Shown here in pieces: positions 28,692-52,625 of a stretch of DNA of 64,000 nt. A program made the position numbers and the translations under genes. Below the pieces are notes generated by a model. That model saw only the letters and a list, made by a program, of their open reading frames with translations, did not search any database and had not been told where the DNA came from. Within the stretch, counting starts at the first letter, position 1; each line of letters opens with the position of its first letter. Source of the stretch: a virus (Duplodnaviria; Heunggongvirae; Uroviricota; Caudoviricetes); the IMG/VR virus record IMGVR_UViG_3300005758_000044, positions 1 through 64,000 of that record; one strand, 5' to 3'.

Positions 28692-28719
28692 TTGACTTTT
28701 TCTAAACATGGTATAAACT
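28692..28719 (+). promoter_or_regulatory. early promoter (TTGACT...TATAAACT) with CAA-rich leader
   Basis: cttgactttttctaaacatggtataaactg; near-identical copy at 29158. Confidence 0.6.
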
Positions 28720-28762
28720 GTATATACGGTAGCAACAACAACAACAACGAAAGAACGACGAT

Positions 28763-29147: not shown

Positions 29148-29157
29148 TTGACTTTTT

Positions 29158-29185
29158 CTAAACTTGGTATAAACTGTATATACGG
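29158..29185 (+). promoter_or_regulatory. early promoter with CAA-rich leader
   Basis: duplicate of 28692 module. Confidence 0.6.
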
Positions 29186-29216
29186 TAGCAACAACAACAA
29201 CGAACAACGCATATAT

Positions 29217-48905: not shown

Positions 48906-48946
48906 TTGACTTTCGATAAAACTGTGATACATTGATTTCAGATTTC

Positions 48947-49021
48947 GGGATCGTAGCTCAGTGGTAGAGCAGTGGTCTTTTAAACCATTGGTCGTGGGTT
49001 CAAGTCCCACCGGTCCCACCA
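48947..49021 (+). tRNA. tRNA-Lys (anticodon TTT), canonical
   Basis: GGGATCGTAGCTCAGTGGTAGAGCAGTGGTCTTTTAAACCATTGGTCGTGGGTTCAAGTCCCACCGGTCCCACCA; own early promoter at 48905. Confidence 0.8.
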
Positions 49022-50221: not shown

Positions 50222-50458
50222 ATGGCATACGATCCGGATCTTAGAAACTGTCAAAACATTCTTGAATCCAAGAGAACTTTTGTTGCCGATGACAGACAAC
50301 ATGCATATGAATCTGTTGTCAATGCCCTTAGCAAGGCAGGCTTTGGTGTGACCATGGTGGGTGATGTTCTCACTGTTCGTAACAAAGGATTTGATGCTAC
50401 GTTTATTCTTCACGAAGTAAGGCTTGACAGAGACCGCGTCGAACCTGATGGAAAATAA
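50222..50458 (+). CDS. hypothetical protein
   Basis: 78 aa. Confidence 0.5.
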   Translation: MAYDPDLRNCQNILESKRTFVADDRQHAYESVVNALSKAGFGVTMVGDVLTVRNKGFDATFILHEVRLDRDRVEPDGK

Positions 50459-50917: not shown

Positions 50918-51085
50918 TTTCAATTGACTGGTGGCGAAACGGCAAACGCACGGAGGCATCCGATTCTCCAATGTTGTATGTCGGCAGACAGAAGCATTGG
51001 CATTGCACGAATGAAGGTTCAAATCCTTCCCAGTCAACCATTTTCCGTTTGACATTTTCTAAAACCCTGATAACCTATTGTTGTT

Positions 51086-51433
51086 ATGAAAATCACATAC
51101 TCAATCGCAGAAGCACTCACCATCCTCACCGAACGTGCCAAGGCACTCAACCACATTCAAGATTTGTCGGTTGAAGTAACATACCCACAAAACCCCATTG
51201 GTGCACAAGACACCAATACCACCGATCAACATCCTTTGGAAGCTTACGCCGTAGTCGTCCGGGAATATGGCGGTTCTAGGCACAATACGAACAAGATTCC
51301 AGCCATCAAGGCGATTCGAGACCGAGTCCGGGGTTTGGGACTCGCTGACGCAAAGTGTGTCATTGAATCCGACCCCGCGTTGGTGCTCATTCACTTTTCT
51401 CGCTGCAATACGTTGAGCGGAATTTCCGAGTGA
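51086..51433 (+). CDS. ribosomal protein bL12 (L7/L12) C-terminal-domain homologue
   Basis: IKAIRDRVRGLGLADAKCVIESDPA aligns to bL12 CTD [24 protein letters not shown]; novel N-terminal half. Confidence 0.6.
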   Translation: MKITYSIAEALTILTERAKALNHIQDLSVEVTYPQNPIGAQDTNTTDQHPLEAYAVVVREYGGSRHNTNKIPAIKAIRDRVRGLGLADAKCVIESDPALVLIHFSRCNTLSGISE

Positions 51434-51474
51434 CCAGCCGATAATCAATTCACAAGGTTGTGGGTCATCCTTTC

Positions 51475-51580: not shown

Positions 51581-51838
51581 ATGAATCCTACGAACTACAC
51601 GGTCGGTCAACGCATCATCCTCACCAAAGACAACTGGTTGACCATTCGCAACAGCAATCGCAGTATTCACGCATATCCAGACGATAACTACGTTAACATC
51701 GTTTATCAATTGATGACCAACAACGTCGCAGGCACCGTCACCAAGCGATTTACGCCCGGTTATGAGTTCAACGTTACCTTTGACAATGGTCAAGTGCTGC
51801 AAATGAAAGATCACTGGGTCACTCCCATTTCCAAGTAA
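51581..51838 (+). CDS. hypothetical protein
   Basis: 85 aa. Confidence 0.5.
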   Translation: MNPTNYTVGQRIILTKDNWLTIRNSNRSIHAYPDDNYVNIVYQLMTNNVAGTVTKRFTPGYEFNVTFDNGQVLQMKDHWVTPISK

Positions 51839-51893: not shown

Positions 51894-52109
51894 ATGAATA
51901 ACGAACTGATCGCTAAGGCCCTCAAGAAGTTCCCCAAGGCCAAAAAGATCGCAGTCGAAAACTTCACCATGGGCTACAACGAACTGTCTATGGAAGCTTC
52001 CATGAACCTCGAAATGGATGCCTCACTCTACAAGTGGAACGCACACACCACCAACGCCATTCGTTACGTGCTACAACACAAACACGCATTCAAAACCATG
52101 GCAGACTAA
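51894..52109 (+). CDS. hypothetical protein
   Basis: 71 aa. Confidence 0.5.
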   Translation: MNNELIAKALKKFPKAKKIAVENFTMGYNELSMEASMNLEMDASLYKWNAHTTNAIRYVLQHKHAFKTMAD

Positions 52110-52307: not shown

Positions 52308-52625
52308 ATGAACGACACCGTGACACCCTTTGTTCCCACCCGCTTTGTTCCCACCCGTGACGATCTGATCGGCTACATCTCCGATATCTACAAGGAAATC
52401 AATGGGTTTCGTCCTCGCCCCGACTGGTCCATGCTCACTTACGAGGAGCTTGACAAGTGGGGTCGTGAGTTGTCCGCCGAAGCCATCCTCCACCGTAAGC
52501 AACAGGTGCAATGGGCCCGCCTGGCCCGCAAACTACGTCGTGCTCGTCAACGGGCTTGGGTGCAAAAGAAACGCACCTACTTCACACCCGTCACCTTCAC
52601 ACTGGGCATGCTAATGCCCACCTAA
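52308..52625 (+). CDS. hypothetical Arg-rich protein (GC-rich)
   Basis: 105 aa. Confidence 0.5.
   Translation: MNDTVTPFVPTRFVPTRDDLIGYISDIYKEINGFRPRPDWSMLTYEELDKWGRELSAEAILHRKQQVQWARLARKLRRARQRAWVQKKRTYFTPVTFTLGMLMPT

Follow-up and report, generated by a model that had tools for sequence, protein, structure and literature searches.

Proteins carrying a domain of the ribosomal stalk protein bL12 (L7/L12) have been described in phages by Mizuno et al. 2019 (PMC6375957), with Ralstonia phage RSB3 ORF10 (98 amino acids, aa), an N4-like roseophage gene product (~106 aa) and a protein of Salmonella phage FSL SP-076 (418 aa) among the examples. Their set includes stand-alone proteins of ~100 aa (RSB3, N4-like roseophages) as well as domains within large proteins; one peptide of the Salmonella-phage protein was found by mass spectrometry in 70S fractions, and affinity co-purification of a tagged viral bL12-domain protein with ribosomes failed (PMC6375957). 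Subsequently, rpL7/L12 was reported among the translation genes of huge phages by Al-Shayeb et al. 2020 (PMC7162821), and the phage L7/L12 label is in routine use today (PMC11934525). Here we analysed a gene of this kind in a 64,000-nt stretch of phage DNA (positions 1-64,000 of IMGVR_UViG_3300005758_000044, Caudoviricetes; hereafter the window). We found that its product belongs to an unnamed family of roughly 100-120-aa phage proteins, and that the similarity to bL12 is genuine and well beyond chance but covers a helix-loop-helix of only ~35 residues. The protein is neither a ribosomal bL12 nor a complete bL12 C-terminal domain (CTD). The gene and the parts of its product are as follows.

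51086..51433, + strand: coding sequence of the phage protein with the bL12-like hairpin; ATG start, 115 aa plus stop.
51284..51388, + strand: bL12-like helix-loop-helix, residues 67-101 (NTNKIPAIKAIRDRVRGLGLADAKCVIESDPALVL), found with Pfam, PDB, hhalign and NCBIfam; equivalent to E. coli bL12 62-94 (alpha4-alpha5).
51086..51184, + strand: family-specific N-terminal module, residues 1-33 (MKITYS, helix 7-22, LSVEVTY).
51185..51229, + strand: variable linker, residues 34-48 (PQNPIGAQDTNTTDQ), predicted to be disordered.
51230..51430, + strand: C-terminal domain, residues 49-115, with four predicted helices (50-66, 70-80, 86-94 and 97-107).

A previous sequence-only reading of the window had assigned the last 60 residues of the protein to a bL12 CTD. 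The homology itself was upheld by profile searches, whereas its extent shrank to residues 67-101. The Pfam model PF00542 (Ribosomal_L12) gave a significant match (E=8.6e-6) that lies marginally above the gathering threshold (26.4 bits versus 25.9) and spans only these residues, corresponding to model positions 9-42 of 67 (34/67 positions). The same residues were matched by E. coli bL12 CTD chains in a phmmer search of PDB sequences (E=0.01), and the boundaries recurred against PDB when a profile of 28 family sequences was used. Aligned with hhalign, this profile matched E. coli bL12 over 33 columns (E=2e-6). Against a CTD profile of 15 complete domains, made of E. coli bL12 and the tandem domains of the proteins P0032, P0035, P0039 and P0050, the match reached E=6e-15 (probability 98.4%) and spanned query residues 54-110 on CTD positions 3-56 of 69, with high posterior only at ~66-100 and low posterior over the beta1-like and beta2-like flanks. 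Every aligned family member (28/28) matched PF00542 at E<=10, the best with E=9.8e-8, and several homologues carry no precomputed PF00542 match.

The remainder of bL12 could not be recognised in the phage protein. The NCBIfam bL12 equivalog TIGR00855 scored 21.8 bits (E=2e-4) versus a cut-off of 84.4, with only residues 67-100 matched. The N-terminal part had been called unrelated to the N-terminal domain (NTD) of bL12, and we confirm this: none of the 28 family members matched the corresponding model PF16320 at E<=10, and hhalign gave residues 1-48 a probability of 0.1% against E. coli bL12. A likeness to the bL12 NTD seen by eye (ITxxxIxEAxxxLT) was rejected, as it found no statistical support in these two comparisons. 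Since a bL12 NTD is missing, a seat on bL10 cannot be assumed. At the opposite end, the chain stops 14 residues past the matched stretch and ~20 past alpha5, so soon after the hairpin that alpha6-beta3 has no counterpart.

In bacterial ribosomes, bL12 contacts IF2, EF-Tu, EF-G and RF3 via a site on helices 4 and 5 that is conserved and carries positive charge (PMC6753160). Binding of EF-G or EF4 causes nuclear magnetic resonance shifts at bL12 residues 66-70 and 80-85, while docking to uL11 involves the alpha4/alpha6 cleft, K95 and L106/L110 (PMC3505967). We mapped the family alignment onto the E. coli bL12 numbering.

E. coli K65, I69, R73, L80, K84 and E88: family K70, I74, R78, L86, K90 and E94, invariant.
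E. coli K70: K or R in the phage family.
E. coli V66: I, L or V in the phage family.
E. coli E82: D or E in the phage family.
E. coli G79 and A83: at least 90% conserved in the phage family.
E. coli K81: Ala in the phage family.

Judged from this alignment, the phage protein retains the factor-contact surface of bL12, without the uL11-docking elements and the bL10 anchor.

To describe the architecture we relied on two AlphaFold2 models, built from 13 and 28 sequences. They predict a small family-specific N-module, a disordered variable linker and a compact four-helix domain that holds the hairpin. In the deeper model, the N-terminal module, with its helix 7-22, has a predicted local distance difference test score (pLDDT) of 86-90; within this module M1, K2, A10 and L14 are invariant, and I3, E9 and V29 nearly so. 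The linker stays below pLDDT 60, and below 50 at residues 37-45, and it varies in length and sequence across the family, where the alignment is gapped. The C-terminal domain has a pLDDT of 90-95. The expectation that its structure would be the alpha/beta fold of the bL12 CTD did not hold, as both models agree on an all-helical domain with no strands. A structural-neighbour search with the model gave no significant neighbour, and bL12 was absent from the result lists.

The predicted helical context of the hairpin fits independent sequence evidence. Across the family, positions 54, 57, 58 and 61 are hydrophobic in an i, i+3, i+4, i+7 pattern. The family member P0087 carries the N-module followed by two "long helix + hairpin" units, and P0099 terminates directly after alpha5. 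A helix plus hairpin without beta2-alpha6-beta3, which is the AlphaFold-predicted layout of the C-domain and the unit that is duplicated in P0087, is also present in many bacterial helix-hairpin proteins. In the subfamily of the window protein, the segments YAVVVREYG and PALVLIHFS look like the beta1 and beta2 strands that complete domains have, for instance in P0032.

When the family profile was searched, the top matches outside the family were non-ribosomal proteins in which the unit recurs 2-7 times, many of these proteins having signal peptides or transmembrane (TM) segments, and genuine bL12 was not within the top 150. Two classes, each a large set and both outscoring real bL12 against the family profile, could be distinguished. 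P0032, P0035, P0039, P0050 and P0038 have complete tandem bL12-CTD-like domains, the class carrying 2-7 of them, often behind a signal peptide. P0044, P0075, P0141, P0154 and P0172 have helix-only hairpin repeats, here with 2-3 units per protein and often a TM segment.

We then considered the family as a whole. Word-indexed and exhaustive HMMER searches recovered homologues that fall into ~30 clusters when grouped at 90% identity and have ~25 representatives when grouped at 50%, all metagenomic, 96-122 aa long and aligning from M1 to the C-terminus. This full-length conservation reaches down to ~33% identity in related phage contigs, where the homologues are located in syntenic small-gene blocks. 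Fifteen positions in both protein halves are invariant (M1, K2, A10, L14, L51, A53, Y54, A55, R65, K70, I74, R78, L86, K90 and E94). The homologue P0008 appears frameshifted. Public contigs from JGI and Logan, up to 289,645 bp long, carry the window protein and annotate the product of 51086..51433 as a gene; members of its 90% cluster are already named "ribosomal protein L7/L12" by JGI. A contig of 289,645 bp carrying this protein points to a probable jumbo phage. That the window is phage DNA is evident from a tail-fibre protein, an ATP-dependent DNA ligase and a helicase matching PHROGs, together with 12 tRNAs. When 50,697 phage records (INPHARED) were searched at the DNA and protein levels, a 5-kb region, the window protein and the window helicase had no match. 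The lineage is probably that of an uncultured jumbo phage, whose tested regions have no DNA or protein match to deposited phages. An antisense open reading frame (ORF) at 51101..51448 (-) was rejected as a shadow, since homologues, Pfam match, promoter and public gene calls all lie on the + frame.

By type this is an early phage gene, and it is served by a promoter of its own, which reads as follows.

51049..51076, + strand: promoter-like element, TTGACA (51049-51054), 16-nt spacer, TAACCT (51071-51076).

The spacer holds a conserved TTTTCTAAAACC box plus a TG, and 9 nt without a Shine-Dalgarno sequence separate the TAACCT hexamer from the ATG at 51086. This promoter is one of ~40 copies in the window of a conserved element, TTGACTTTCTCTAAAAC-N3-GATAnnnT, that lie at about 28,690-51,900 (+ strand 41.5-51.9 kb; - strand 34.5-40.2 kb), plus 2138- and 7301-. 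In ~28 of these ~40 copies an ATG opening an ORF follows the -10 hexamer by 7-10 nt, mostly 9, and the array is apparently made of leaderless one-promoter-per-gene units. Given the usual sigma-70 start-site spacing, transcripts from these promoters would carry leaders of 0-3 nt, and the closeness of promoter and ATG suggests that the mRNA of 51086..51433 is leaderless or nearly so. The view of a phage whose mRNAs are all leaderless thus holds for the gene block around 51086..51433, as far as promoter-ATG spacing tells, and is not demonstrated for all mRNAs. The arrangement is retained at close homologues, and the 35%-identical homologue on L001 has a different promoter sequence with the same layout (TTGACT-17 nt-TATGCT-9 nt-ATG). 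An N-terminal extension, MGRWCLYAIST, annotated at L001:6001-6033 and in the proteins P0012, P0014, P0015 and P0018, proved to be a gene-calling artefact that reads through the promoter (TTGACT...TATGCT), because the promoter arrangement of L001 places the ATG at MKI. The conserved start is this MKI... ATG, 9 nt past the -10 hexamer.

With respect to its evolution, amino-acid change in the gene runs at about three times the rate of four of its neighbours. The ratio of non-synonymous to synonymous polymorphism (pN/pS) of 51086-51433 was 0.66 (pairs 0.45-0.99), a value that comes from a small sample of six close relatives with non-independent pairs, compared with 0.21-0.27 for 50222-50458, 51581-51838, 51894-52109 and 52308-52625 in related contigs of the same loci. 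Replacements recurred at positions 72, 76, 79, 82, 87 and 91, while the bL12-like core was unchanged in the six relatives. The gene had also been placed in a GC-rich island and taken as acquired from a host, and neither suggestion fared well. At 50.0%, the GC (guanine plus cytosine) content of the ORF exceeds the 45.2% average of the 34-54-kb small-gene block, in which other genes have 50-52%, and homologues on other phage contigs show a similar small excess over their own loci. We rejected a recent host acquisition because the GC excess is small, the promoter is of phage type and the full length is conserved down to ~33% identity. Plausibly, the hairpin may have derived from a cellular rplL long ago.

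What might such a protein do? Our tentative proposal, which we rate somewhat short of an even chance, is that it binds a host translational GTPase off the stalk, early in infection, and biases host translation toward the phage. The hairpin would present a bL12-type surface to the G domain of a host translational GTPase (IF2, EF-Tu, EF-G or RF3), and the binding would take place away from the ribosomal stalk. The protein could be a competitor. Alternatively, it could be an adaptor with an N-module, tethered to the hairpin domain by the flexible linker, that gives self-association or a second partner; in both cases the outcome would be translation biased in the phage's favour. We consider off-stalk binding the most likely mode because the contact residues are kept while the uL11 cleft and the bL10 anchor are absent. 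The fast change around a fixed core fits the pattern expected of a host-interaction surface. The sequence-only reading had proposed that EF-G, EF-Tu or IF2 could be titrated or ribosomes retargeted, which is conjecture. In a more specific version, which we find unlikely, the protein would be soluble and would mimic the surface with which the stalk recruits factors, and a jumbo phage with almost all early genes leaderless would make it early. It would capture a host GTPase via the hairpin while the N-module self-associates or delivers the factor elsewhere, so that initiation is tilted toward phage messages. Since the availability of IF2 favours 70S initiation on leaderless mRNAs, IF2 would be the most interesting candidate partner of such a mimic. 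If this were true, the threefold excess of amino-acid change would reflect co-evolution with the host factor.

Several points weigh against the off-stalk proposal. The function it assigns hangs on a motif of ~35 residues, in which K81, a basic residue of the bL12 site, is Ala in the phage family. Without avidity, it is doubtful on quantitative grounds that abundant factors could simply be titrated, because the isolated bL12 CTD binds factors weakly, with a dissociation constant of only 0.1-0.4 mM (PMC3505967). The predicted all-helical fold comes from a shallow alignment (28 sequences), and a hydrophobic-moment test found residues 26-32 clearly strand-like and 50-66 and 97-107 without a clear helix or strand signal. 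The rate estimate draws on few sequences, and relaxed constraint is equally a source of fast change. Finally, the hairpin is found in many secreted or membrane-anchored bacterial proteins, which need not act in translation.

The main rival is a reading that we find quite possible without calling it probable, namely that the hairpin serves as a generic helix-loop-helix module for interaction or scaffolding, of common ancestry with bL12, whose partner is a phage protein or a different host target rather than a translational GTPase, and whose likeness to the bL12 site reflects hairpin folding only. The strongest matches outside the family being non-ribosomal proteins of 2-7 units, with bL12 beyond the top 150, agrees with it, as does the fact that several of the "contact" residues (equivalents of I69, L80 and A83) are hydrophobic core positions; nor do the neighbouring genes give any functional hint in Pfam and PHROGs. 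However, exposed basic residues (equivalents of K65, K70, R73 and K84) are invariant or conservatively replaced besides the core, a Salmonella phage bL12-domain protein was detected in 70S fractions (PMC6375957), and a protein of Pseudomonas phage UNO-G1W1 (described below) couples the hairpin to a release-factor domain. We also considered a circularly permuted but complete bL12 CTD, in which the N-module (residues 2-32, strand-helix-strand) supplies beta2/alpha6-beta3 and packs on residues 50-105, rebuilding the alpha/beta domain and its uL11 cleft. The order of elements in the N-module would be right, residues 26-32 are strand-like, in the top alternative alignment from hhalign residues 6-32 fall on CTD 48-69 (alpha6-beta3), and the beta1-like and beta2-like segments of the closest subfamily (YAVVVREYG, PALVLIHFS) resemble those of complete domains (P0032). 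We nevertheless regard this as improbable: that alignment is at chance level (E=0.3-0.7, probability 0.1-0.2%), both AlphaFold models are strand-free and keep the modules apart by the disordered linker, family positions 54, 57, 58 and 61 follow an i, i+3, i+4, i+7 rather than an alternating pattern, and in P0087 the helix-hairpin unit is repeated but the N-module is not.

We give very little credence to the protein being a true stalk component that replaces host bL12 on bL10 and recruits factors to phage-modified ribosomes. Its layout of N-module, flexible linker and factor-binding C-domain does parallel bL12, and published viral bL12 proposals assume incorporation into ribosomes (PMC6375957, PMC7162821), but there is no detectable likeness to the bL10-binding NTD, TIGR00855 stays far under its cut-off (21.8 versus 84.4 bits), it has neither alpha6 nor the uL11 cleft, both of which productive docking requires (PMC3505967), and the tagged viral bL12-domain protein of Mizuno et al. 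did not co-purify with ribosomes (PMC6375957). It seems just as hard to believe that the gene is what is left of a captured rplL fragment, decaying or dispensable and without current function: while its pN/pS of 0.66 is high relative to the neighbours and the P0008 homologue appears frameshifted, the ratio is still <1, length and architecture are retained in ~25 subfamilies down to ~33% identity with 15 invariant positions in both modules, and a dedicated promoter is kept in distant lineages.

The surroundings of the gene deserve a brief description. Ten neighbouring genes, scanned against Pfam and PHROGs, gave no informative match. One of them, the 105-aa gene at 52308-52625 (+), has in the window a 5-codon direct duplication near its N-terminus (FVPTR FVPTR) compared with four homologues. 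Among the copies of the promoter element, that at 48906 directly precedes a tRNA-Lys (48947-49021). Those at 28692-28750 and 29148-29206 (+) are followed by TATATACGGTAGCAACAACAACAAC repeats, with no ATG, and lie near the GC-skew sign change at ~27-28 kb; this repeat region could be a non-coding RNA or an origin-related region. Just upstream of the promoter of 51086..51433 lies a tRNA-like element, 50925-51040 (+), with a T-arm and the 3' end GGTTCAAATCCTTCCCAGTCAACCA. ARAGORN calls it a tRNA-Pro(UGG) only with introns allowed, with a 40-nt insert and a weak anticodon stem, and the Rfam tRNA model gives it 18.7 bits, under the gathering score of 29. Upstream of the gene, L011, L012 and L015 have this element and L004, L010 and L013 lack it; it is probably a degenerate or interrupted tRNA.

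The main present value of these results is corrective. The "ribosomal protein L7/L12" labels for this phage family, JGI's included, overstate its content, as the shared element is a portable ~35-residue hairpin that is also found in many non-ribosomal proteins. Likewise, counts of virus-encoded ribosomal proteins based on PF00542 matches may include proteins unable to join the stalk or to form the CTD fold. If the proposed off-stalk activity is true, the family would offer a compact, easily expressed case in which a phage employs, away from the ribosome, a copy of the surface by which the stalk binds GTPases, and a handle on the bias of host translation by a phage with dozens of leaderless early genes.

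Altogether, the window protein can be placed among known systems as follows. With the bacterial bL12 CTD (PF00542; 1CTF) it has in common the hairpin K-[IV]-x-[AV]-I-K-x-[IV]-R-x(3,4)-G-L-G-L-x-[DE]-A-K-x-[LV]-[IV]-E, among whose residues are those by which bL12 contacts IF2, EF-Tu, EF-G and RF3, and a flexible linker ahead of the factor-binding domain. Unlike bL12, it is devoid of the N-terminal dimerisation/bL10-binding domain and of alpha6-beta3, hence of the alpha4/alpha6 cleft for uL11; the flanks of its hairpin are predicted to be helical instead of forming beta1/beta2, a 4-5-residue insertion precedes alpha4, Ala stands for K81, and the NCBIfam equivalog score remains far under the cut-off. 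Bacterial helix-hairpin proteins (P0044, P0075, P0141, P0154; NF005269-like) have a preceding helix followed by KIxAIKxxRExTGLGLxEAKxxVE and no beta2-alpha6-beta3, the context that is predicted for the phage C-domain. These are, however, cellular, with 2-3 units per protein and no MKITY-type N-module, and the window protein itself did not match NF005269 at E<=1. A three-helix domain with a similar motif (VKELRERTGAGMMDCKKAL) is the N-terminal UBA-like domain of EF-Ts. For that motif, a contact with EF-Tu like the one made by helices 4 and 5 of L7/L12 has been proposed (Wieden et al. 2001, pmid 11231892, as reported in PMC12179292). A link to this domain was dropped, as query residues 74-104 aligned on EF-Ts 9-39 but not significantly (hhalign against residues 1-55, E=0.052, probability 1%).

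Class I release factors carry a GGQ motif. The UNO-G1W1 protein mentioned above, WYN05139.1 (L009:1249-1731, 160 aa), combines a release-factor GGQ-type domain (TIGR00019, E=1.8e-16), in which the sequence reads GAGGM at the GGQ position, with a bL12-like hairpin and a Cys-rich tail, a fusion that ties the hairpin to translation in at least one other phage protein. In RSB3, RSJ5, UNO-G1W1 and vB_Ecl_SABI, the match to the E. coli CTD is again essentially the hairpin only. PHROGs 5819 and 26927 gave weak matches to our family (E 1e-2 to 9e-5), restricted to the hairpin, and tblastn of the family against the INPHARED records found none, so that no kinship to a described phage family beyond the hairpin emerged from these searches. 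Like the published phage "bL12" proteins, the window protein is phage-encoded, non-ribosomal, found via the bL12 CTD model and the product of a small early-region gene. In RSB3 ORF10, by contrast, the hairpin is at the N-terminus and unrelated sequence follows, and in other phage "bL12" proteins it is embedded in large proteins. The idea of a phage "bL12" is therefore already published, and the proteins described here are a separate new family of that known kind.

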